Assembly (NCBI GenBank): GCA_965231055.1
Contig: OZ246411.1
Span: forward strand, 732,500-796,499
Direction: 5' to 3'
Origin: an uncultured Candidatus Saccharibacteria bacterium
Lineage (GTDB): Bacteria; Patescibacteriota; CALEFQ01; G965231055
DNA length: 64,000 nt
Each line of letters starts with the position of its first letter. Position 1 is the first letter of the stretch. The notes below the pieces were generated by a model that saw nothing but the letters and a program-made list of their open reading frames with translations, had not been told where the DNA came from and searched no databases. Of the stretch, positions 546 through 56,742 are shown in pieces. The position numbers were made by a program, and so were the translations under genes.

Positions 546-2309
546 TTATGGAGTAACTATTTTTTTTCTTTTTGTGCGAATTGTATTCAATATTTCTTCT
601 ATGGCTTGTGGGGAATAAAACATATATATCTGCATACCTTTCCTTCTTCTTAACCCAAATGAATTGGAGTCTGGATTATTCGCCTCATATTTCCCAACGG
701 CTTCATAAAAAGCGTAGAGCGAAATAGAATCATCAGTTTTTTTCAATTCTAAATAACATTCATGGGCTGTTTTCCATCCCCCCTCAGGCTCTCCGATAGA
801 CTCAATAGTATTTTCAATATTCTTTGCTAGCTCTGGTCCAACACATTCCGCTATATTACTCTTCACCCTAAACTTACCAAACCATTCACTGCCATGATCT
901 TCCATGTATTCTTCCAACATGCGCTTCAATGTTTTTCTATTAATACCTAGTTTTTTTGCTAGCGCCTCGACAGAGATCCATTTATCAGGTATCTCGGGAT
1001 ATTTTAAATATTCAAATGCCTTGCTTTCGATAATATCAATTAATTCAGCATCAAGACGTTTAGCACTAGCAACATTTTCGGAGCGCTTAACCCAATCAGG
1101 ACGACTTGTAGTATACTTTTTTACAGCTCTATCTATGAAAGAACGACTAACACCCAATCGTCTAGATAAATCATCAACTGTCTCCCCTTTCATAGATGAA
1201 GCATCGCGAGAATTGATTGCTGAATCAAGTTCATTAAATAACTCTGGGCCAATATGTTCTGCTGCTCTGCCTCGAAGAGGTCTAAATACCTTTGTTGAAC
1301 TTTTATTTTCCATTTTGTCCATTCGTCTTTCGATAGTAGAAATATCAACACCTAACCTTTTTGCAGTTTTTCGTTTCGATCTCCATCCAGATTCAGCGAA
1401 TGGCAACACCTCCTTTTTCATAATAGAAATTAGGTCAGGACTATAGTACTCTCTATTTCCAAACTCACCCGATAGCTCTGGATTTGCTTTCAAATATTTT
1501 TCAGATAGTGAAATAAATTTAGCTCTCCTGACGTGTAATTGCCTTGATGCTCCTCTAGCACTAGGCCACCCCAATGGACGCTCTGACAGAATAGGAGCAT
1601 TTATTTCCTGGGCATCCTTGGATTTCTTTTTAATTTCAACTTCTTTTAATAGAGCTATTCGCATATCATCTTTCCATTTCACCTCATCGCCTGGATATAC
1701 TATCTTATCAACTCGGCCTTCAAGCTCCTGAAGTTGTTGTTTAGTCATTCCTGAATAATCCTCCCAGTTTTCTATGGGGTTTTCAATATCTTTGATGATA
1801 TAAGTGGCATTATCTTCCTCGTTGTTTACCATAACTATTCTCGAGTTTTCTGGAAGTATGAACGGTTGATAACTAAGCTCACGAACCATGTTGGGATCAT
1901 TTTTACCACTAACTACTGAATATGGAATCTGCATATCGGAAAGAAGCTCCATCAGAAACTGGGTTCTGGGGATATATTTGGGCTTTTCGAACTTGTTTTC
2001 TCCAGTTATAGCTCGTTGTATCTCTCCTTGATCTGGAGGAAGAATCACTTTACTTGATTGAATGATCTGATCAGGAAGTCTAAGATTCATTCCCTTTGAA
2101 ATTAGATCATCCACATATTCTTTGACTTTGAAATGGGTGAATTCTTTGCCCTTTTTCACTTCTCTGGTCACGAAGTCTCTAGCATTCAAAATTTGTGCCA
2201 TTTCAAAGATAGGAAGTCCTTCATGCAAATATCCTTCTATTTGCTTACTGGTTTTCATCCTAAAATCTTCTCGTTTTCCTATTTCACTTGATTGTTCTGG
2301 ATTGTTCAT
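546..2309 (-). CDS. paralog-family protein A: conserved ~200-aa N-domain plus C-terminal HTH-like W-repeat modules
   Basis: N-terminal 200 aa about 90% identical to ORF 39164..40945 and about 75% to 37492..39066; C-terminus has repeated modules of form P(D/E)GW..LA..LG(V/I)...TI.R...NPEWF...YYSPE.I. Confidence 0.7.
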   Translation of the reverse strand: MNNPEQSSEIGKREDFRMKTSKQIEGYLHEGLPIFEMAQILNARDFVTREVKKGKEFTHFKVKEYVDDLISKGMNLRLPDQIIQSSKVILPPDQGEIQRAITGENKFEKPKYIPRTQFLMELLSDMQIPYSVVSGKNDPNMVRELSYQPFILPENSRIVMVNNEEDNATYIIKDIENPIENWEDYSGMTKQQLQELEGRVDKIVYPGDEVKWKDDMRIALLKEVEIKKKSKDAQEINAPILSERPLGWPSARGASRQLHVRRAKFISLSEKYLKANPELSGEFGNREYYSPDLISIMKKEVLPFAESGWRSKRKTAKRLGVDISTIERRMDKMENKSSTKVFRPLRGRAAEHIGPELFNELDSAINSRDASSMKGETVDDLSRRLGVSRSFIDRAVKKYTTSRPDWVKRSENVASAKRLDAELIDIIESKAFEYLKYPEIPDKWISVEALAKKLGINRKTLKRMLEEYMEDHGSEWFGKFRVKSNIAECVGPELAKNIENTIESIGEPEGGWKTAHECYLELKKTDDSISLYAFYEAVGKYEANNPDSNSFGLRRRKGMQIYMFYSPQAIEEILNTIRTKRKKIVTP

Positions 2310-8471: not shown

Positions 8472-10049
8472 TTATTTATTGGATAGATTGGCAAAACTAA
8501 AACCATGCATATCCTTTGGCCTCTTTAGTCCCATTAGATCCAAAATAGTAGGAGCAACATCTCCAAGAAAACCATCAGGAGAAACATCACCCAAATCAAA
8601 AATACTCCTACTCGCATGTTCAAACCCCTTAGCTACAATGCAAAGAGGAACAGGATTTATAGTATGATCAGTTTCCATCATTCCCGTATGGGCATCTCTC
8701 ATGGACTCACAGTTACCGTGATCTGCGGTAATAATAGTCGCACCACCCATATTCAGAACTTCATTTGCAATTCTAGCTACGCTATTATCAACTGTTTCTA
8801 TGGCGATTTTTGTAGCATCAATATTTCCAGTATGCCCCACCATATCGCAATTGGCAAAGTTTATAACTATGAAATCATATTTATTAGTAGCAAGCTCTCT
8901 AAGTACCCTATCTGTAAGTTCCCTAGCTGACATTTCTGGTTTCTCATCGTATTTAGGAACTTGTGGGGAAGGAATCAAGACTCTATCCTCTCCTACAAAA
9001 TTAGCTTCCACTCCTCCATCAAAGAAAACGGTAACGTGAGCATATTTTTCAGTTTCAGCTATGTGAAGTTGTTTTAGCCCAGCTTCACTTATCACCCTAG
9101 CTACTGGATACTCTACATTCACAGGATTAAATGCAATTTCAACGGGTAGATCTTTGTCATACTCTGTCATTGCAACAAATAATAAATCCTCCACCTTCTG
9201 AGTTCTTTTCACTTCATCTGGCAAGCTTGGCATAACAAAAGTCTTGGTTATTTGTAACGCCCTGTCTGGTCTAAAATTGAAAAATATCAGTGCATCTCCT
9301 TTTTCTATTTTTGCTATTGGCTTTTGACCTTCGCAAATCACGGAAGGCTCTACAAATTCATCAGTGATTCCTTTTTCATAAGATGTGGCCACAACATCCT
9401 TTGCATCCTTGTATTTTGGTCCTTCACCTAGCACCATTGAATTGTATGATTTCATAATTCTATCCCAATGCTTGTCACGATCCATTCCAAAATAGCGTCC
9501 TCCTATCGTAGCGATTTTGCAAGAACCAAATCCGGAAATAGCTTTTTCAAGATCCGTTAAATACCCCAAAGCACTTTTGGGAGCAGTGTCCCTGCCGTCA
9601 GTGAATAAATGTAAGAAAATATTTTTTATTCCTTTTTGGGTTGCAAACTCAATAAGCGAATACATATGCTTTTCATATGAGTGAGCAGCTCCGGTACCAA
9701 GAAGCCCCATAATATGAAGTTTGGAATTGTTTTTTTTCACATGCTCTTCTGCTTTTAGAAATGCTGGATTTTGAAAAAAGGATCCGTCTGCAATCGTGCT
9801 ATTTATCCTCGGTAAATCCTGAACCACGATTCTACCAGCCCCCAAGTTTATATGTCCAACTTCAGAATTTCCCGTTTCGCCCCAAGGCAATCCAACACCC
9901 TCCCCAGAAGCACTCAGTGTTGCACTAAAATAACTAGAAGTTAATTTCCTCAAGTTTGATATATTGGAAAGAGAGACCGTATTTCCTGGTCCATTTGGAG
10001 CTATTCCTAGTCCATCTATTATAGTAAGTACTACTGGGCGATAATTCAT
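8472..10049 (-). CDS. gpmI: 2,3-bisphosphoglycerate-independent phosphoglycerate mutase
   Basis: 525 aa, N-terminal VLTIIDGLG and metal-binding D/H motifs of iPGM. Confidence 0.85.
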   Translation of the reverse strand: MNYRPVVLTIIDGLGIAPNGPGNTVSLSNISNLRKLTSSYFSATLSASGEGVGLPWGETGNSEVGHINLGAGRIVVQDLPRINSTIADGSFFQNPAFLKAEEHVKKNNSKLHIMGLLGTGAAHSYEKHMYSLIEFATQKGIKNIFLHLFTDGRDTAPKSALGYLTDLEKAISGFGSCKIATIGGRYFGMDRDKHWDRIMKSYNSMVLGEGPKYKDAKDVVATSYEKGITDEFVEPSVICEGQKPIAKIEKGDALIFFNFRPDRALQITKTFVMPSLPDEVKRTQKVEDLLFVAMTEYDKDLPVEIAFNPVNVEYPVARVISEAGLKQLHIAETEKYAHVTVFFDGGVEANFVGEDRVLIPSPQVPKYDEKPEMSARELTDRVLRELATNKYDFIVINFANCDMVGHTGNIDATKIAIETVDNSVARIANEVLNMGGATIITADHGNCESMRDAHTGMMETDHTINPVPLCIVAKGFEHASRSIFDLGDVSPDGFLGDVAPTILDLMGLKRPKDMHGFSFANLSNK

Positions 10050-48149: not shown

Positions 48150-48596
48150 TTATAAGACGAAACTTTTCAATTCCTCCCTGAAACGAGGACACTCGTCGAG
48201 AATCTCACTGAAACTACTCATCAAGAAGGAGTTTCCTTCCTTCTTATAAAAGATCCTGAGATTGCCTTCGCAGGAGATCACGTAGTAGCTGAATTCTCCC
48301 TCGGTGAGATCCTTGGGCTTCAGGAGACGAAAACTGCTCGCGTAGAAAATTTTGGGCTCTTCTTTCTTATGATCCGATAAGTACTCCGCGAAAGAGAAGG
48401 ATTCAATTTGATCAATCTCCTGCCCGTGAATTCTCAGTATGCCTCCAAAGTCCCGGTGTTTGAAATATCGCTTACCTTCTTTTGTTTCGAGGTAGTCCAT
48501 ATTCGAGCACCTGTTCTCATCGGTACTTTTCAGAAAACGAATCAGAGCCGTAACCCAATGGGCCATCTCAACTCCATTACAAACTTTATGAGTCAT
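48150..48596 (-). CDS. hypothetical protein (148 aa) with atypical, higher-GC composition
   Basis: Codon usage visibly richer in GAG/CTC/CGC than neighbours; no recognisable motif. Confidence 0.45.
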   Translation of the reverse strand: MTHKVCNGVEMAHWVTALIRFLKSTDENRCSNMDYLETKEGKRYFKHRDFGGILRIHGQEIDQIESFSFAEYLSDHKKEEPKIFYASSFRLLKPKDLTEGEFSYYVISCEGNLRIFYKKEGNSFLMSSFSEILDECPRFREELKSFVL

Positions 48597-48760
48597 TTCT
48601 CATTCCTCCTTGAAAAATGTTTACGTTCCCACAACACAGTGAAGCCACGCAGAATTATTACTTCTTCGCAGCTTTACTGGGTTGTGGATATGTCAAAGAG
48701 CTAACTAATTACAATTTCGATACTAACATATAAGCCATAAAAAGTCAAGCAAACTACAAT

Positions 48761-48784
48761 AAAACCGCTTATTAAAGCGGTTTT
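48761..48784 (-). terminator. rho-independent terminator after the fused nrdJ
   Basis: 10-bp stem aaaaccgctt / aagcggtttt with 4-nt loop. Confidence 0.6.
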
Positions 48785-48794
48785 ATGTGGGGGT

Positions 48795-48831
48795 GTGGAT
48801 AGATTTTTTATCCACACTTAGAGTATCCACA
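48795..48831. promoter_or_regulatory. cluster of three DnaA-box-like 9-mers (TGTGGATAg, TTATCCACA, gTATCCACA) around the nrdJ stop codon
   Basis: gtgtggata-gatttttta-tccacac inverted repeat plus a third copy inside the last codons. Confidence 0.35.
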
Positions 48832-51800
48832 GCTTCGGCAGATAAGGCATCCTTCGGAAAATTCAACAGTGCCTCCGCATTCTGGACACATAGGATTGTA
48901 TCCCAATTCATTGTTTGTGGTGTAAACTTTTTCTTTCTTTTTTTCTTCAACCACAGTTGGCTTCTCTACTTTTTCAACCTTTGGCATAACTAAATCTAGC
49001 TTGAGTTTGACGCTAGGCTTTTCTTCCTTCTTGAATTCCAGTTTTAGTTTACTTTTTCTTTCTATATATCTCTTGAGTGCTAAAGCTATACCATCAGAGC
49101 AAGAAAAAATCGTTCCGCCTTTTGTCATGATGGGAGAAGGGCATCTCACTCCTTCAAGCTGTTTTACTATTTCATTTGGATCTATTCCTGATCTTAGCGC
49201 TATAGAAATCAGTCTTCCTATTGATTCTGAATATGACGCGGGGCATCCTCCTGATTTTCCAAGCTTCGCGAAAACTTCAAACACACTATTCTCATCCTCA
49301 TTTATAGTTACATGCAAAGGACCACATCCAGTCGTGATGACTTCGGTGGTACCCATGACAACTTCTGGTCTCTCTCTTGGTTCAACTGAACCTATGGAAC
49401 CGATGGTTACTTTTGATTTGTCAGCAGATAAACCACTTCCTCTCACAAGCACCTGTTCATCTTTTGATTTGTCTCTATAAATAGTAATTCCCTTGCATCC
49501 GGTACTGTATGCTAGCATGTAGGCTTTTTTCACTTGGTCCACTGTCGCATCCTCTTTGAAATTTACAGTTTTGGAAACAGCGTTGTCAGTATATTTTTGA
49601 AATGAGGCCTGCATTTTTACATGCCACTCTGGATCGATATCATGAGCAGTCACGAAAATTCTTTTTACTTTTTCGGGAACTTCATCGAGATGCTGAACTC
49701 CCCCCTCTGCCTTTACTTTTTCTATTAATTCTTCTGAATAAAAGCCTTCTTCCTTTGCAATTCTTTCAAACTCAGGATGCATCACGACTTGATTTTCTCC
49801 CCCCATTGAATTTTGCATCGTATAGCTTATGGCAAACAACGGCTCTATCCCAGCTGAACAATCTGCGACTATGCTTATAGATCCCGTTGGAGCAATAGTA
49901 GTCACAGTAGCATTTCGCATCGCATCATATTTGCCATTGAAAGTGCTTTCTTTAAACGCTGGAAAGGATCCTCTTTCTTGTCCTAATTTTTGGGATTCGC
50001 TTCTTGCTACCTTGTTTACAAAACCCATAACAACCTCGGCCATATCCGTAGCTTCTTTGCTGTTATAAGGAATTCCAAGTTTAATAAGCATATCAGCCCA
50101 GCCCATTATTCCTAGTCCAGATTTTCTCGTTCTCTTGGTGGCTGATTCTATTTCGGGAAGCACATATTCATTTGATGAAGTTATGTCATCAAGAAATCTC
50201 ACACCTGTTCTCACTACATCCTCTAATCTTCTCCAATCAATTTTGCCATCTTTAACAAACCTGGAAAGATTGACGCTACCAAGATTACACGACTCATAAG
50301 GAAACAATGGCTGTTCTCCGCATGGATTGGTGGCGGTCATCTTACCTAGCCCCGGCACGGTATTACCTTTTTGAATAGTATCAAGAAAAACAACACCAGG
50401 ATCTCCCGAACCCCAAGCGTGTCTAGAAATAAGATCAAATAAATTAGTTGCGCTTACTTCTTTTACACATGCTTTTGTCCTAGGATCTATGAGTTTAAAA
50501 CTCTTATCATCCCTCACGGCTTCCATAAATTCATTTGTAATGCCCACAGAAAGATTGAGATTTTCAACTTCACCAGGAACATCTTTGCATTTTATAAATG
50601 TTTCAATATCAGGATGATCTATATTTAGTATAGCCATTGCGCCCATTTTTCTACCACCTCTGCCTTTTATAGTTCTCATTGTGGCATTTAACGCTCTTAG
50701 AAATTCAACTGGACCAGCTGCGTTTTCTCCAGTGGAACTTACTTTTGAATAGCTAGATCTTATATCTGAGAGATTGAATCCTGTACCACCTCCACTTCGG
50801 AGTATCTGAATATTGTCTCTTACTGTGTTGAATATATCGTTTATGCTGTCATGCATAGGTAGCACAAAACACTTGGACAAGGTTCTGTTTCGTTGTCCTG
50901 CAAAAATCAAAGTGCCCCCACAAAGAAATTCTAAATTCTTTTGAACTTCTGAAAATTTGTTTTTTATTTTTTTGCACTCTTCGTCGGAGCAAAATTCTTT
51001 TTCAGATCGTCCTACGAAATCAGATATTCTATCAAACAATTCTTCGGGAGTTTCTATTACTTCGCCTTTCTCATTTTTGGCAAGAGCTCGCTTTTCCAAA
51101 ACCTTTATCGCATTTGGAGTAAGCTTTGCTTTTTCTTCTTTTGCACCTTGCTCTTCAGGCTGTTTAATTTCAGATGGTTTCTTCTCTTCTTTTTTAACTC
51201 CCATTATCTGAAATTCTTTGCATCCATCTCTATAAATAGTAATACCCTTACATCCAAGCTCATAGGAAAGCATGAAAGCATCTTTGACTTGGTCTATCGT
51301 GGCGTCATTTGGGAAATTTATAGTTTTAGAAACGGCATTGTCTGTATATTTCTGCGCGTTGGCTTGAATTTTTAGATGCCATTCGTATGAAACGTCATGA
51401 GAAGTTACAAAAACTTTTCTCACTGCCTCAGGTATTTCTTCTAAATCCTTTATACTCCCACGAGAAGCTATTTTCTTCATAAGCTCTTCCGAGTAAAAAC
51501 CTTTTTCTTTGGCAACTTCTTCAAAAACAGGATCAGTGATAACTATTTCTTGGTAACTATCACCCTTGAACAATGCTTTTCTTACAGAAACGAGTGAGAA
51601 CACCGGCTCTATACCAGAAGAACATCCGGCGATAAGACTTATGGATCCAGTTGGCGCAATCGTTGTAAGAGTTGCATTTCTTGGTCTGAAACCCGTATCA
51701 ACAAAAATACTCTCTTCAAAAGCTGGAAAAACTCCACGCTCTTTTGCTAGTTCGCAGGAGCGTTTCATCCCTTCTTCTTTTATGAATTTCATAATCTCAC

Positions 51801-52929
51801 CAGATAGTTTTATAGCCTCATCGCTATTATAAGGAATACCTAGCTTATAAAGCATATGAGAAAATCCCATAATTCCAAGGCCTATCTTTCTCGTTCGCTT
51901 TACATTTTCATCTATTTTTTGAAGCGGGAATTTGTTTTCTTCTATAACATTATCCATAAAATGCACTGCGTCTCTCACAGTATTTCTAAGCATATTCCAA
52001 TCCATCACTCCATCTCTGAAATGATTGGTCAAAACTATTGATCCCAAGTTACATGACTCATAAGGAAGCAATGGCTGCTCTCCGCATGGGTTGGTAGCGT
52101 CTATTTTGCCAAGTTTAGGAGTCGGGTTTGATCTTTGTATTCTATCTAGATAAATAGCTCCTGGATCAGCACACTCCCAAGCTTTTTTCGCTATCAAGTC
52201 AAAAACTTCTCTAGCTTTTATTTTTCTAACAACTTCGTTGTTGTGAGGATTTTTCAGATCGTATTCTTTGTTGTTTTTTACCTTCTCCATGAAATCATCA
52301 GTAATTCCCACAGAAATATTGAAATTTTTTATACTTGATCCGCTGTCTTTTAGTTTGATGAAATCCAAAATATCTGGATGATCCACATTCAAAATTCCCA
52401 TATTACCTCCGTGTCTTTTGCTGCCTTGCAAAATTTGAGATAAAGCCGTATCAAAAGTTTTTAGGTAATGAATGGGACCCGCTGCCACATTTGGAATTCC
52501 CCTAACCGAACTTCCTCTTGGTCTTATCGGTGAAAAATTGAATCCAGTTCCTCCGTTATTTTTTTGTATGACCGCTGCATCTGACAATGCCTGAAAAATA
52601 TCTGTGAGCGAATCAGATAGAGGCACCACAAAACAAGCAGAATATTGTCCATTGTGATTGGTTCCTGCTTCAAGTAGCACGGGGCTATTTGGCAAAAATC
52701 TGAGTTGCGCCATCATCTTATAAAACCTGCGGGCATTCTCATCCACAGCTACGGCATCTTTACCGAATTTTTTATCTGCTTCAGAGATACACTTTGCTAC
52801 TCTCCATAACATTTCATCTGGGGTCTCTAAAATATTACCTTTTTCATCAGTTACTAAATAGCGCTTCTTGATAATTTCAAGAGCTGCTTTTGAAAATTTT
52901 GGTTGTGGTAAATCTTTTGGAACTGTCAT
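48808..52929 (-). CDS. nrdJ: tandem fusion of two class II (adenosylcobalamin-dependent) ribonucleotide reductase NrdJ modules; C-terminal Zn ribbon
   Basis: 1373 aa, uninterrupted; module 1 (51201..52929) and module 2 (48808..51120) each have the Cys-containing S(A/K)CFV, NPCGEQPL, ESCNLGS, PTGSIS and KTVNF motifs; joined by a K/E-rich linker (51121..51200); C-terminus CPECGG..CLICRSCG. Confidence 0.8.
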   Translation of the reverse strand: MTVPKDLPQPKFSKAALEIIKKRYLVTDEKGNILETPDEMLWRVAKCISEADKKFGKDAVAVDENARRFYKMMAQLRFLPNSPVLLEAGTNHNGQYSACFVVPLSDSLTDIFQALSDAAVIQKNNGGTGFNFSPIRPRGSSVRGIPNVAAGPIHYLKTFDTALSQILQGSKRHGGNMGILNVDHPDILDFIKLKDSGSSIKNFNISVGITDDFMEKVKNNKEYDLKNPHNNEVVRKIKAREVFDLIAKKAWECADPGAIYLDRIQRSNPTPKLGKIDATNPCGEQPLLPYESCNLGSIVLTNHFRDGVMDWNMLRNTVRDAVHFMDNVIEENKFPLQKIDENVKRTRKIGLGIMGFSHMLYKLGIPYNSDEAIKLSGEIMKFIKEEGMKRSCELAKERGVFPAFEESIFVDTGFRPRNATLTTIAPTGSISLIAGCSSGIEPVFSLVSVRKALFKGDSYQEIVITDPVFEEVAKEKGFYSEELMKKIASRGSIKDLEEIPEAVRKVFVTSHDVSYEWHLKIQANAQKYTDNAVSKTINFPNDATIDQVKDAFMLSYELGCKGITIYRDGCKEFQIMGVKKEEKKPSEIKQPEEQGAKEEKAKLTPNAIKVLEKRALAKNEKGEVIETPEELFDRISDFVGRSEKEFCSDEECKKIKNKFSEVQKNLEFLCGGTLIFAGQRNRTLSKCFVLPMHDSINDIFNTVRDNIQILRSGGGTGFNLSDIRSSYSKVSSTGENAAGPVEFLRALNATMRTIKGRGGRKMGAMAILNIDHPDIETFIKCKDVPGEVENLNLSVGITNEFMEAVRDDKSFKLIDPRTKACVKEVSATNLFDLISRHAWGSGDPGVVFLDTIQKGNTVPGLGKMTATNPCGEQPLFPYESCNLGSVNLSRFVKDGKIDWRRLEDVVRTGVRFLDDITSSNEYVLPEIESATKRTRKSGLGIMGWADMLIKLGIPYNSKEATDMAEVVMGFVNKVARSESQKLGQERGSFPAFKESTFNGKYDAMRNATVTTIAPTGSISIVADCSAGIEPLFAISYTMQNSMGGENQVVMHPEFERIAKEEGFYSEELIEKVKAEGGVQHLDEVPEKVKRIFVTAHDIDPEWHVKMQASFQKYTDNAVSKTVNFKEDATVDQVKKAYMLAYSTGCKGITIYRDKSKDEQVLVRGSGLSADKSKVTIGSIGSVEPRERPEVVMGTTEVITTGCGPLHVTINEDENSVFEVFAKLGKSGGCPASYSESIGRLISIALRSGIDPNEIVKQLEGVRCPSPIMTKGGTIFSCSDGIALALKRYIERKSKLKLEFKKEEKPSVKLKLDLVMPKVEKVEKPTVVEEKKKEKVYTTNNELGYNPMCPECGGTVEFSEGCLICRSCGYSKCG

Positions 52930-52959: not shown

Positions 52960-55155
52960 TTATATTTTTAGCTTTCCGCTATCATCAAGATATTTTTGAA
53001 TTGCTCTAGAAATAGCATCTGCACATGAAAGCACCGCACCGTCTTTTGTAAGCAATGGCTTTGAGCATCTGATTCCTCTAAGTTCTTTGAGCAAATCCTT
53101 TGGATCCATTCCACCCCTCAATGCAGTTGAAACCAATCTACTAATTGCTTCTACCTGAGATCCTTCGCATCCTCCGCTTTTACCCATTCTTGCGATAACT
53201 TCTACCATTCCTTTTTCATCTTCACTTATAGTCACGAAAAGTCTTCCACATCCGCTCATCATTTTGTATGTTTTGCCGGTCACTACCTCTGGGCGCTTTC
53301 TGGGTCTCATTGGTTGCTCTATAACTTTGACAGCTATTTTTCCAGATTGAATAGATTGAGAGTCTCCAGATTCTTTTGAGCCACCCTCGCTACCAATATT
53401 TAAGACCTGCTTATCTCTTGATTTATCTCTATATACAGTGACACCCTTGCATTTAAGTTTATAAGCGAGATCGAAAACCCTTCTCACATCCAGAGTAGTT
53501 GCGTCATGTGGCATATTAACTGTCTTGGAAACAGCATTGTCTATATTGTCTTGAAAAGCTGCTTGCATTTTTACATGCCAATCAGGAGAAATATCATGAG
53601 AAGTAACAAAAATTCTCTTAACCTCTTCGGGAATTTCACCAAAATCTTTGATGCTTCCCTTCTTTGCAATTTTTTCAAATAAAAATTCATCATAAAATCC
53701 TTTTTCCTTTGCTACCTGACTAAAAAGTGGGTGCGTTTCTGTCATAGAAAAATCACCCAAATCCAAAATATTTTTTCGGGTAAACGAGATAGCGAAAATA
53801 GGCTCAATACCGGACGAACATCCAGCAATTATGCTTATAGTTCCGGATGGAGCTATTGTAGTGACAGTTGCGTTTCGCATGGCTGGAAATCCTTGCTCTG
53901 ACCAAATACTTTTTTCCATATTTGGGAAAGAACCTCTTTCTTCTCCTATTTTTTCAGACATTCGTCTTCCCTCTTCTGATATAAATTTCATCACTCTCTG
54001 CGCAGTAGCTATTCCTTCTTCGCTGTTATATGGAATACCAAGGGCCATAAGCATATCTGCAAATCCCATCACGCCTAGACCAATTTTCCTGTTCGCCTTG
54101 GTTGCTGTATCTATTTTGGTTATGGGAAAATTATTTACATCTATAACATTGTCAAGAAAACGCACAGCGGATCTAACCACGCGACCAAGCTTTTTAAAAT
54201 CAATTGAAACCTTACCTTTGTCATCCATAATCATTCGCGAAAGATTTATGGAACCCAAGTTACATGATTCATAGGGCAACAATGGTTGCTCTCCGCAAAC
54301 ATTGGTTGATTCTATTTTGCCAACACCTGGAGTAGTATTTTTATTGTTAATTTCGTCTATAAATACTATTCCGGGTTCTGCGTTTTTCCACGCCATCTCC
54401 ACAATAAGTCCATAAACATCATTGGCTCTCAGAGTCTTTACGGCATTTTTGGTATGGGGATCAATAAGCTCATATTCCCTATCGTTTTTCACGGCTTCCA
54501 TAAACTTTTCCGTAACTGCTACTGACACATTGAAATTATTAAGTTCTCTTGGATCGTCTTTGACAGTAATAAAATCCAAAATATCAGGATGATCCACTCT
54601 CAAAATTCCCATGATGGCACCTCTTCTAGCGCTTGCCTCATTTATTGTGTTTGTTGAGTTATTAAAAAGTTTCATGAAAGAGATAGGACCAGTTGATCCT
54701 TTTTTTGTAGTTGAGATTATAGATCCTTTGGGACGTAGCTTTGAAAAATCAGATCCGCTTCCGCCACCAGATTTGTGCACCAAAGCAGTTTCGCGCATTG
54801 CTTCAAAAATAGATTCCATAGAATCATCTACGGGTATCACATAGCATCCTGAAAGCTGACCCATCTTGCTTCCTGCATTCATCAAGGTTGGAGAGTTTGG
54901 TAAAAAGTCCAAAGAAGCCATAAGATCATAGAACTCTTGCTTGGTGTTTTTGACTTCTTGTTCCGATGCTCCATATCTGGCATCTGCTTGCGCCACAAAA
55001 GAAGCCACCCTATCAAACATTTCTTCAGCCGTTTCCGTAACCTCTCCACTAGAATTTCTTTGTAAAATTCTTTTTTTCAATACTTCCTCTGCATTTTTTG
55101 ATAGTGTCAATTTCATTTTTTTATTTACTGCGAATCTTTTAAAGGTTATTCGCAA
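52960..55155 (-). CDS. nrdJ: class II (adenosylcobalamin-dependent) ribonucleotide reductase NrdJ, stand-alone
   Basis: 731 aa; LSGCYVIPV, NVCGEQPLLPYESCNLGS, APSGTISI; C-terminal TGCG..GKSGGC subdomain present. Confidence 0.85.
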   Translation of the reverse strand: MRITFKRFAVNKKMKLTLSKNAEEVLKKRILQRNSSGEVTETAEEMFDRVASFVAQADARYGASEQEVKNTKQEFYDLMASLDFLPNSPTLMNAGSKMGQLSGCYVIPVDDSMESIFEAMRETALVHKSGGGSGSDFSKLRPKGSIISTTKKGSTGPISFMKLFNNSTNTINEASARRGAIMGILRVDHPDILDFITVKDDPRELNNFNVSVAVTEKFMEAVKNDREYELIDPHTKNAVKTLRANDVYGLIVEMAWKNAEPGIVFIDEINNKNTTPGVGKIESTNVCGEQPLLPYESCNLGSINLSRMIMDDKGKVSIDFKKLGRVVRSAVRFLDNVIDVNNFPITKIDTATKANRKIGLGVMGFADMLMALGIPYNSEEGIATAQRVMKFISEEGRRMSEKIGEERGSFPNMEKSIWSEQGFPAMRNATVTTIAPSGTISIIAGCSSGIEPIFAISFTRKNILDLGDFSMTETHPLFSQVAKEKGFYDEFLFEKIAKKGSIKDFGEIPEEVKRIFVTSHDISPDWHVKMQAAFQDNIDNAVSKTVNMPHDATTLDVRRVFDLAYKLKCKGVTVYRDKSRDKQVLNIGSEGGSKESGDSQSIQSGKIAVKVIEQPMRPRKRPEVVTGKTYKMMSGCGRLFVTISEDEKGMVEVIARMGKSGGCEGSQVEAISRLVSTALRGGMDPKDLLKELRGIRCSKPLLTKDGAVLSCADAISRAIQKYLDDSGKLKI

Positions 55156-55170
55156 AATATTAATTTATAA

Positions 55171-55614
55171 TTAAAGTTCTAAAATAGTTTTTTGAAAATC
55201 TTCGGGGGAAGAAAAACGATCAAAAACAGATTTAAATCTTATGAAAGCAATTAGATCGAATTTCTGAAGATGCTTAAGCACAATCGATCCGATGTCTTTG
55301 CTATAAATCTCGCCTTCGGAAAAAGCCAATATTTCCTGCTCTATTCCATCAATCAATGAATTGATTTCTTCCTCGCTTCTTCCTCGCTTTGCGCATGCAT
55401 AATTTATAGCTTTGTATAATTTTTCACGATTATACATTTCTTTTTTACCGTTTCGTTTTCGCACCTCAAGTTTTTTCAATTCTATTCGCTCAACCGTCGT
55501 GTATCTTCTTTTGCAGCTCTCACACTCACGCCTTCTTCTAATAGAAATTCCATCCTCTGATATTCGAGAATCTACCACCCTAGTCTCTTTGTATCCGCAT
55601 ATTGGACAATTCAA
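55171..55614 (-). CDS. nrdR: transcriptional repressor NrdR (Zn ribbon + ATP cone)
   Basis: MNCPICGYKETRVVDSR...CESCKRRYTT. Confidence 0.9.
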   Translation of the reverse strand: MNCPICGYKETRVVDSRISEDGISIRRRRECESCKRRYTTVERIELKKLEVRKRNGKKEMYNREKLYKAINYACAKRGRSEEEINSLIDGIEQEILAFSEGEIYSKDIGSIVLKHLQKFDLIAFIRFKSVFDRFSSPEDFQKTILEL

Positions 55615-55649: not shown

Positions 55650-55697
55650 CCACAATGTATTGTATTGCAGGGATAATCTTACCACAATATCTAGTGC
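55650..55697. promoter_or_regulatory. two tandem NrdR-box-like palindromes, centres 32 bp apart, upstream of nrdR
   Basis: ccacaatgtattgtat and ccacaatatctagtgc compared with the NrdR-box consensus acaCwAtATaTwGtgt. Confidence 0.55.
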
Positions 55698-55714
55698 CAA
55701 AGAATACGTAGTGT

Positions 55715-55738
55715 CTGTGGATAAGTAGTTATCCACAG
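55715..55738. promoter_or_regulatory. inverted pair of consensus DnaA boxes (TGTGGATAA / TTATCCACA) upstream of nrdR
   Basis: ctgtggataa-gtag-ttatccacag perfect palindrome. Confidence 0.45.
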
Positions 55739-55803
55739 CTAGCCATTATTAAATATCAAAAATATAGCTATCTTTTGCTACAAATACGCCAAGATAGTAT
55801 AAT

Positions 55804-56742
55804 ATGAGACCAACTAAATCATTAAAAAACAAACAAATGGAAAATGAAACAGTGAATAATCCAGATCAACCAAAAAAGGAAGTTCCTCACGGTATGATAT
55901 GGATAATACTAGTCGCAGTAGTTATAGTGGCAGCAATTTTTTTCTTGATATTCTGGATAGGTAAAGAAACTGCTAAAGCTCCGGAAGTTTCTTATAACGC
56001 TAGTGAAAACGAAGCTACGGACCCAGCAGGAGAAAGTATTGAATCCCCTGAAATTGCAACCGAAACAAAGGAAGCCCAAAGTAGCGCAAAGACAGGAGCC
56101 GAAACAGTATCAATAGATAGTACATGGAACAAATACACAAATTACGATTTGGGATTTTCAATCAACGTACCAAAGCAAGCTGCATCTGGATATGCTAGTT
56201 GCGAGTTTAATTCAGGTGAAAAGTCCTACAGAGCAAAGGCTGGAATGGTCCAAATAAAAACTTTTGAAGATGCTTCGAGTGGTGTGGTCTACATAGCTCC
56301 TGAATATTTTTATAGACTAGGGGGAGAGAAACAAAATTCGAGTGGAGTCTCCACATTTTCAATTTGTACGAAGATTCAAAACTCTGTCTCTGAAATGAAA
56401 AAATCAAATGAATTAACAGAAATCAACTACTGGAAGCTGACAACACAATCGACTGAAAATGATGTAGAAATTGAAAGCTTCTTGAAATCTATATTTGGAA
56501 CTGCATGCAAACTTGGAGATAAAACTCAAACTTCGGTCGCTGGGGTTTATGACATAAAAATAGATGGAGTTACTGATCTTGATGGTGCATGCCCAATGAA
56601 CGCTGCCTATGTTTTCAAGTATTCACAAGTAAAAAAATTGGTTACAACGTGGACCACTGGACAAGCTTATAGCTTCTACACATCAACAGACTACAGTAAT
56701 GCTCATGACGAACAAATGATAGATAGCTTTAGTTTCAATTAA
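55804..56742 (+). CDS. membrane-anchored (one N-terminal TM) secreted hypothetical protein
   Basis: 312 aa; TM helix IWIILVAVVIVAAIFFLIFWI then low-complexity linker and Cys-containing globular part. Confidence 0.55.
   Translation: MRPTKSLKNKQMENETVNNPDQPKKEVPHGMIWIILVAVVIVAAIFFLIFWIGKETAKAPEVSYNASENEATDPAGESIESPEIATETKEAQSSAKTGAETVSIDSTWNKYTNYDLGFSINVPKQAASGYASCEFNSGEKSYRAKAGMVQIKTFEDASSGVVYIAPEYFYRLGGEKQNSSGVSTFSICTKIQNSVSEMKKSNELTEINYWKLTTQSTENDVEIESFLKSIFGTACKLGDKTQTSVAGVYDIKIDGVTDLDGACPMNAAYVFKYSQVKKLVTTWTTGQAYSFYTSTDYSNAHDEQMIDSFSFN

Follow-up and report, generated by a model that had tools for sequence, protein, structure and literature searches.

A candidate DnaA-box pair next to the NrdR boxes of a class II ribonucleotide reductase operon in a Saccharibacteria bacterium

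The window analyzed here, a 64-kb stretch (64,000 nucleotides) of the 843,892-bp contig OZ246411.1 from an uncultured Candidatus Saccharibacteria bacterium, carries on its minus strand an operon in which the regulatory gene nrdR is followed by two genes encoding class II ribonucleotide reductases (RNR), nrdJ and a fused double nrdJ that we call nrdJJ. All coordinates are positions in this window. The site of interest sits upstream of nrdR, in a 189-bp gap separating two divergent genes, where an inverted pair of DnaA-box 9-mers precedes two NrdR boxes (Table 1). On the operon strand, the order is ...gctagC-TGTGGATAA-CTAC-TTATCCACA-Gacactacgtattctttg-gCACTAGATATTGTGG-TAAGATtatccctgca-ATACAATACATTGTGG-...-TTG(nrdR). 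The gene identities given in the original prediction, which was made from the DNA letters and a list of their open reading frames (ORF), are borne out by profile searches. NrdR reaches 147.3 bits against TIGR00244, well above the cut-off of 124.65, and matches the family model end to end, while the fused NrdJ, like the single NrdJ, scores above the cut-offs of adenosylcobalamin-dependent reductase models. Downstream of the operon terminator are a 148-amino acid (aa) ORF of no known family and then cobA, which encodes an ATP:corrinoid adenosyltransferase. Every sequence quoted in that prediction is present as well, and the reading of its coordinates had to be corrected: since the operon is on the minus strand, plus-strand coordinates run from its promoter-distal end. 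Because the intergenic distances are merely 15 bp (nrdR-nrdJ) and 30 bp (nrdJ-nrdJJ), the arrangement indicates that the three genes form one transcript.

As for the DnaA boxes, the predicted inverted pair of exact consensus 9-mers is indeed found upstream of nrdR. The pair reads TGTGGATAA-ctac-TTATCCACA, with the two TTAT ends facing each other across a 4-nt gap and inverted arms that extend to 10 bp (55715-55738), and its proximal box lies 18 nt upstream of the first NrdR box. Both half-sites are identical to the near-universal DnaA consensus at nine positions out of nine. Such exact 9-mers are enriched over chance, the window containing four copies of TTATCCACA where 0.78 would be expected, a number that none of 100 shuffles reached. 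Box pairs, allowing one mismatch per box and a gap of at most 40 nt, are also overrepresented (four, vs 0.26 in shuffles) and confined to the two ends of the operon. Single boxes with one mismatch allowed show no window-wide enrichment (26 vs 19.8 expected), and only three boxes with at most one mismatch occur within 400 bp on either side of the site. The possibility that the palindrome is a generic repeat, raised when the site was first predicted, can be rejected for this lineage, both from the confinement of the pairs within the window and from the contigs of relatives, in which exact boxes are rare. Locus L178 likewise has no exact box in 20 kb other than these two. The site does not resemble an origin of replication either: it has only two boxes, and the GC skew, negative to the left and to the right of it, does not switch. 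The window contains neither dnaA nor oriC, and neither was encountered within 10 kb to its right.

The second element is a candidate NrdR operator. The operator consensus is a 16-bp partial palindrome, acaCwAtATaTwGtgt, and the tandem-box arrangement of NrdR operators was reportedly described by Rodionov and Gelfand in 2005. When the whole window is scanned for ACACWATATATWGTGT with up to three mismatches, the only two matches are the boxes upstream of nrdR, with three mismatches each. Their starts are 32 bp apart, which leaves a linker of 16 bp, in keeping with the 15-16 bp between boxes in NrdR sites (PMC13584703; PMC12051234). The two boxes flank a conserved motif, TGnTAnnnT, which we take as a putative extended -10. 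Transcription would then start near 55669, with the DnaA pair centered around -58 to -61; a promoter consensus scan gives an alternative promoter, TTGGCA-16-GATTAT at 55700-55673. Known NrdR operators (PMC13584703, PMC12051234, PMC9110341) are likewise made of two 16-bp partial palindromes separated by 16 bp and overlapping the promoter of an RNR operon that contains nrdR itself, and the window site differs from them in nothing essential, apart from the three mismatches per box. The predicted NrdR operator is thus supported by consensus match, linker length, promoter overlap, and conservation in relatives (see below); to judge from the family, its function would be autoregulation by NrdR.

Table 1. 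Coordinates of the operon and of the regulatory features associated with it
Feature	Position	Strand	Description
nrdR	55171-55614	-	TTG start, 147 aa; Pfam Zn_ribbon_NrdR and ATP-cone
nrdJ	52960-55155	-	Class II adenosylcobalamin-dependent ribonucleotide reductase, 731 aa; NF006417 and TIGR02504 above cut-offs
Fused double nrdJ (nrdJJ)	48808-52929	-	1373 aa; two complete RNR bodies, TSCPD, and C-terminal CxxC...CxxC tail
DnaA-box 9-mer, promoter-distal	55729-55737	-	TGTGGATAA on operon strand, TTATCCACA on plus strand; exact match
DnaA-box 9-mer, promoter-proximal	55716-55724	-	TTATCCACA on operon strand; exact match
NrdR box, promoter-proximal	55682-55697	-	CCACAATATCTAGTGC (gCACTAGATATTGTGG on operon strand); 13/16 consensus matches
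Second NrdR box	55650-55665	-	CCACAATGTATTGTAT (ATACAATACATTGTGG on operon strand); early transcribed region; 13/16 consensus matches
Putative extended -10, TGgTAAGAT	55676-55684	-	TG supplied by the 3' end of the promoter-proximal NrdR box
Divergent promoter-like site, TTGCTA-17-TATAAT	55775-55803	+	For the 312-aa gene; -35 is 38 bp from the DnaA pair
3' cluster of DnaA-box-like 9-mers	48793-48831	-	Three copies; probably not part of the regulatory device
Intrinsic-terminator-like hairpin	48759-48786	-	12-bp stem, then TTTTATTGT; ends the operon

The upstream site is conserved in relatives of the window's organism. A scan of the genome collection with NrdR yielded no close relative, the best match being 49% identical. 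Four further relatives were found in the protein database, in assemblies of sequencing runs, and their contigs were compared with the window. Three of them retain the pair upstream of nrdR: L082 (NrdR 84% identical) has tTGTGGATAACTACTTATCCACAa, L085 (83%) has cTGTGGATAAGTGGTTATCCACAg, with the spacer gtgg, and L083 (71%) has cTGTGGATAATTACTTATCCACAg, with the spacer ttac and a third exact box ~55 bp further upstream. In L084, whose NrdR is 55% identical, the corresponding upstream position carries an exact TGTGGATAA, without a second exact copy in 20 kb, and the proximal 9-mer is replaced by TTATaCACA, 22 nt further downstream. While the flanks diverge, the distal 9-mer is invariant in all five aligned lineages. 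The alignment (A2) reveals four conserved islands with less conservation between them: one at the DnaA box(es), one at the first NrdR box, one at the TGnTAnnnT motif directly after it, and one at the second NrdR box. That motif is present in five of the five lineages (TAAGAT, TAAACT, TACAAT, TACAAT, and TATGAT), and the distance from the DnaA boxes to the NrdR boxes and promoter is maintained across them. The gap ranges between 4 and 22 nt, and there may be one, two, or three boxes, while the 9-mer stays constant. What is conserved is the 9-mers and not the palindrome, as expected if each box is recognized individually in the manner of DnaA boxes; a dimer operator of fixed geometry or a hairpin would fit less well.

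The neighbor on the other side of the intergenic region is not constant. It is the 312-aa gene in the window and in L082, a radical-SAM gene in L083, and a deoxycytidine monophosphate (dCMP) deaminase gene in L084. Since the pair persists where this divergent neighbor is replaced (L083 and L084), the DnaA-box site goes with nrdR. In L084, the divergent gene (9451-9822, minus strand) encodes a dCMP/cytidine deaminase, so that a nucleotide-metabolism gene shares the intergenic region with the DnaA boxes there. In the window, the divergent gene has its own promoter-like site, both hexamers of which are recognizable in L082. The longest ORF of this gene opens at the ATG at 55804, immediately after the TATAAT (window 55798-55845, plus strand), so that translation either begins at one of two later ATGs (55838 or 55845) or takes place on a leaderless mRNA made from another start. 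Beyond these lineages, the more distant Patescibacterium L015 (NrdR 46% identical) has an operon laid out in the same way, with ORFs of 599 and 1450 aa after an nrdR match, and one exact box ~75 bp upstream of its -35. Among more distant Patescibacteria, L180 and L184 have one one-mismatch box each and four others have none.

The layout upstream of nrdR is reminiscent of the nrdAB promoter of Escherichia coli. Read directly from the genome of strain MG1655, the region upstream of nrdA is composed of TTATCCACA-aag-TTATGCACT, 16 nt, and an NrdR box, CACACTATCTTGCAGT, over the -10, followed 32 bp downstream by a second NrdR box, CCCCTATATATAGTGT. Both targets are RNR operons, and both display the consensus TTATCCACA and the same order, i.e., DnaA boxes, NrdR box at -10, and NrdR box 32 bp on. 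The DnaA-to-NrdR distance is also similar, 16 nt in E. coli vs 18 nt in the window, and the step between NrdR boxes is 32 bp in both. However, the E. coli boxes are in tandem with a 3-nt gap, the second being imperfect and abutting the -35, whereas the window has an inverted pair of perfect boxes with a 4-nt gap, located ~10 bp further away from the promoter. Moreover, the E. coli operon encodes a class Ia enzyme, NrdAB, with nrdR elsewhere, in contrast to the window, where nrdR heads a class II nrdJ operon and the host is a member of Patescibacteria, or Candidate Phyla Radiation. This placement follows from SecY, whose closest named relatives, at ~64% identity, belong to Torokbacteria, Parcubacteria, Moranbacteria, and Doudnabacteria. 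In E. coli, DnaA regulates nrdA and binds upstream of nrdD (PMC11317965; PMC11853086), binding to nrdA and to nrdD being documented in vivo (PMC11317965), and its effect on nrdAB, according to the summary of Olliver et al. (2010) in PMC11853086, depends on the level of DnaA-ATP. The "double DnaA box" sites of the E. coli regulon (PMC11317965) also resemble the window site in having two close 9-mers at a nucleotide-metabolism promoter and a purine after the box, but they are tandem with a 2-3 bp gap, rather than inverted with a gap of 4 bp. The originally proposed reading of the upstream pair as DnaA boxes is thus supported by a phylogenetic footprint in five lineages, by the exclusion of a generic repeat in the window and in the contigs of the relatives, and by a layout that mirrors E. 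coli nrdAB.

The same sequence occurs well outside this group of organisms. A scan of metagenome contigs for the 22-mer TGTGGATAANNNNTTATCCACA returned 90 stretches, from which 80 loci were analyzed (numbered L087-L166). An NrdR or NrdJ relative was detectable in none of the 80. About 66 of the sites are intergenic, and 33 are within clusters of at least five DnaA-like boxes. The products of flanking genes include DnaA, DnaN, YidC, and MnmE, but they are more often unrelated, such as DegS-like kinases, Orn/DAP decarboxylases, or cytochrome bd. Origin-like arrays of 15-23 boxes (L147 3577-3668; L113 9149-9258; L131 1300-1771) contain TGTGGATAA-N4-TTATCCACA, and it is exactly at this junction that box orientation flips, the flanking boxes being spaced by 2-3 nt. 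In L147, for example, four leftward boxes are followed by the pair junction and four rightward boxes. This is the geometry of the window site, except that the junction in the arrays is flanked by tandem boxes at 2-3 bp while the pair in the window stands alone. The inverted arrangement with a 4-nt gap therefore occurs in genuine DnaA-box arrays, but it is found elsewhere too. Of 146 metagenome half-sites, 75% have a purine directly after the 9-mer, as do E. coli sites defined by chromatin immunoprecipitation sequencing (PMC11317965). In a subset of loci (L099, L120, L126, L129, L130, L134, L135, L149, and L157), the 22-mer lies 100-150 bp upstream of DegS-like histidine-kinase genes, with tandem copies at several of them. 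These sites often consist of TGTGGATAA-N4-TTATCCACA plus three symmetric bases on each side (e.g., GCC...GGC), and they have 6-9 DnaA-like boxes within 400 bp on either side.

Together, these features suggest that nrdR-nrdJ-nrdJJ has one promoter with two inputs, NrdR autorepression and a DnaA pair near -58 that would tune transcription, an interpretation towards which we lean with modest confidence and which is built on sequence, on conservation, and on the analogy with E. coli. In this scheme, NrdR with bound dATP/ATP, acting as expected for its family, would occupy the two boxes bracketing the extended -10. Since the boxes bracket the -10, NrdR would block RNA polymerase and thereby repress nrdR together with the class II reductases. 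The replication initiator DnaA, bound to the pair a short distance upstream of the -35 region, would tune transcription and thereby make deoxyribonucleoside triphosphate (dNTP) synthesis follow the initiation potential of the cell, as at E. coli nrdAB. Because nrdR heads the operon, DnaA would set the level of the repressor too. The position of the pair outside the core promoter favors activation or anti-repression at low occupancy, while at high DnaA-ATP the protein may spread in the direction of the promoter and repress it. A link between the start of replication and dNTP supply is credible rather than surprising, its layout being already known from E. coli nrdAB.

Several observations weigh against this interpretation. 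The footprint covers five lineages in all, four of which are fairly close, and in 80 nrdR loci from other phyla, used as a negative control, no DnaA boxes were found upstream, apart from L015. The box consensus is the near-universal, E. coli one and may not be the origin consensus of this genome. In addition, the boxes are inverted and 4 bp apart and neither has a tandem partner, unlike what E. coli DnaA needs or prefers in vivo, namely tandem boxes 2-3 bp apart, with many single consensus boxes remaining unbound (PMC11317965). Finally, 47 of the 80 metagenome palindromes are isolated pairs beside unrelated genes, and 20 of 73 distinct sites extend as perfect palindromes by at least three further bases (1.1 expected), some of them by 13-23. 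The 22-mer is consequently not always a DnaA site in other genomes, and the symmetric extensions show that part of its population belongs to long inverted repeats instead of simple box pairs.

The alternative that survives best is that the palindrome is the operator of another dimeric helix-turn-helix (HTH) regulator, which would recognize TGTGGATAA half-sites in place of DnaA, although we regard this as unlikely. It would explain a perfect 10+10 palindrome whose 4-nt gap is fixed in four lineages, but a dimer of fixed geometry could not use the half-sites of L084, which are 22 nt apart, nor does it account for the extra single boxes in L083 and L015. L084 weakens in this way both alternatives offered by the original prediction, the dimeric operator and the RNA hairpin. 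No regulator gene is conserved beside the site, and the half-sites match the near-universal DnaA consensus in full. The metagenome copies found 100-150 bp before tandem DegS-like histidine-kinase genes, often with longer symmetric flanks, do look like operators of this kind, yet they themselves lie among 6-9 DnaA-like boxes. The preference of E. coli DnaA for tandem over inverted pairs (PMC11317965) also speaks for a regulator other than DnaA.

A different question is whether the 3' end of the operon harbors a second functional DnaA site, which together with the upstream pair would bracket the operon. This stems from the earlier claim that the same palindrome recurs there, which turns out not to describe an equivalent site. 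There are three copies, TGTGGATAG (48794-48802), TTATCCACA (48808-48816), and GTATCCACA (48823-48831), and the coding strand reads TGC CGA AGC TGT GGA TAC TCT AAG TGT GGA TAA aaaat cTATCCACA Cccccacat. Two of the three are codons of a conserved peptide, TGTGGATAC encoding Cys-Gly-Tyr (TGT-GGA-TAC) and TGTGGATAA encoding Cys-Gly-stop (TGT-GGA-TAA), within an NrdJ tail that ends in ...CRSCGYSKCG-stop in the window and in CRxCGYSKCG-stop in its conserved form. Cys-Gly-TAA alone fixes seven of the nine positions of TGTGGATAA, and codon usage by itself yields both coding boxes with a probability of ~0.05. The third copy, cTATCCACA, is noncoding, and the last two copies form a 9-bp hairpin across the stop codon (48793-48817). 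In L084 and L015, on which 3' conservation was judged, the cluster is not kept: the same tail peptide is encoded with other codons (TGCGGATAC..TGTGGGTAG and TGCGGATAT..TGCGGGTAA, respectively) and there is no downstream box. When the last 350 aa of the fused NrdJ served as query in a homology search, all matches were of ~50% identity and came from other phyla. The presence inside 38 bp of three boxes with no more than one mismatch, a further ATATCCACA at 48683-48691, and a noncoding copy that would arise by chance with a probability of ~0.001 (by rough hand arithmetic, ~10 positions x 28/262144 nine-mers) argue for a second DnaA site. Nevertheless, the codons account for two of the boxes, a plain RNA hairpin and a terminator account for the rest, and we find a functional site at this end distinctly improbable. 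To judge from sequence, the 3' cluster is most likely a by-product of NrdJ-tail codons and a lineage-specific hairpin, and is probably not a second operator.

We also give little chance to the idea that DnaA binds the upstream pair only as a small titration or reactivation site, similar to datA or to a DnaA-reactivating sequence (DARS), without any control of nrd transcription. Opposed DnaA boxes a few base pairs apart, in an intergenic location, form the core of E. coli DARS1 and DARS2 (PMC6868365), and the window site is, like a site of this type might be, outside the core promoter. However, the DARS1 core, which we read directly as TTATCCACT-5-TGTGGATAA-3-TGTGTATTA, has the opposite inverted sense, with the CACA ends facing across a 5-bp gap and a third tandem box, whereas in the window the TTAT ends face across a 4-bp gap and there is no third box. 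Orientation, gap, and box number thus rule out a DARS proper. As for titration, the capacity of two boxes is negligible, and neither the distance to the NrdR boxes and promoter that is kept across lineages nor the parallel with the regulated E. coli nrdAB promoter would be expected of a mere sink.

Finally, a role as a nucleic-acid structure, whether a DNA cruciform or an RNA hairpin belonging to a leader or a terminator, is very improbable. The palindrome does fold on both strands, at energies of -14 to -15.5 kcal/mol (z scores of about -3.4 to -3.9), and its tenth pair changes from C-G to T-A in L082. However, the conserved promoter elements are downstream of it, no lineage has a gene whose transcription runs into it, and it is not followed by a T-run. 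In L084, the boxes are retained while the pairing is lost. Since a purine follows the 9-mer in three quarters of the metagenome half-sites, the change in L082 is explained by an independent half-site preference and not by base pairing. A scan of the window against Rfam matched no family, so that no riboswitch or leader was recognized at the operon.

The operon itself encodes three complete class II reductase bodies, one in the 731-aa NrdJ and two fused head to tail in the 1373-aa protein. The finger-loop motif is NVCGE in NrdJ and NPCGE, at residues 280 and 868, in the fusion. The three bodies are mutually 48-49% identical, and only the last one has the CxxC...CxxC tail. The same nrdJ layout is found in L084 (10443-16660; 720 and 1351 aa), where the RNR domains are confirmed by Pfam, and, judging from ORF sizes (599 and 1450 aa), in L015 (10532-16722). 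A covalently linked NrdJ "dimer" alongside a separate paralogue is unusual. At the head of the operon, the public gene call for nrdR (P0001, 135 aa) begins at an internal GTG and loses the first CxxC of the zinc ribbon, while the TTG at 55614 restores the full 147-aa NrdR (window 55579-55614, minus strand; L081 9965-10000). Between nrdJJ and cobA (48150-48807, minus strand), the 148-aa ORF has no match in Pfam or NCBIfam and is absent from L084; upstream of it are a promoter-like site of its own (48748-48720) and the one-mismatch box ATATCCACA. Elsewhere in the window, a 587-aa protein (546-2309, minus strand) contains several HTH motifs that belong to various Pfam types (HTH_28, HTH_23, HTH_8, and others) as its only recognized domains, and has no exact copy in the contig index.

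A more far-reaching proposal, which we make tentatively and with the odds somewhat against it, is that an isolated inverted pair with a 4-nt gap and facing TTAT ends is a self-sufficient DnaA operator. Such an operator would be distinct from the tandem "double box" of E. coli and would be a module shared with the flip junctions of oriC, through which DnaA would directly regulate NrdR and the only ribonucleotide reductases in a family of genome-reduced Patescibacteria lacking controls of the Hda/SeqA type. If this were true, the many isolated 22-mers in unrelated metagenomes would represent a widespread and unrecognized class of DnaA regulatory sites, and replication initiation and dNTP supply would be wired together without Hda/SeqA-type controls.

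What is established about the control of ribonucleotide reductase by DnaA comes mainly from E. coli, and how dNTP synthesis is matched to initiation in bacteria without Hda-type systems is a question that has been raised, e.g., in PMC11853086. The compact 24-bp site described here provides a case for deciding whether inverted box pairs are true DnaA operators, without calling for a new kind of mechanism. The coupling in this organism would extend to the repressor gene in addition to the enzymes. Finding a DnaA pair beside NrdR boxes in Patescibacteria suggests that the coupling is either old and widespread or easily re-invented.

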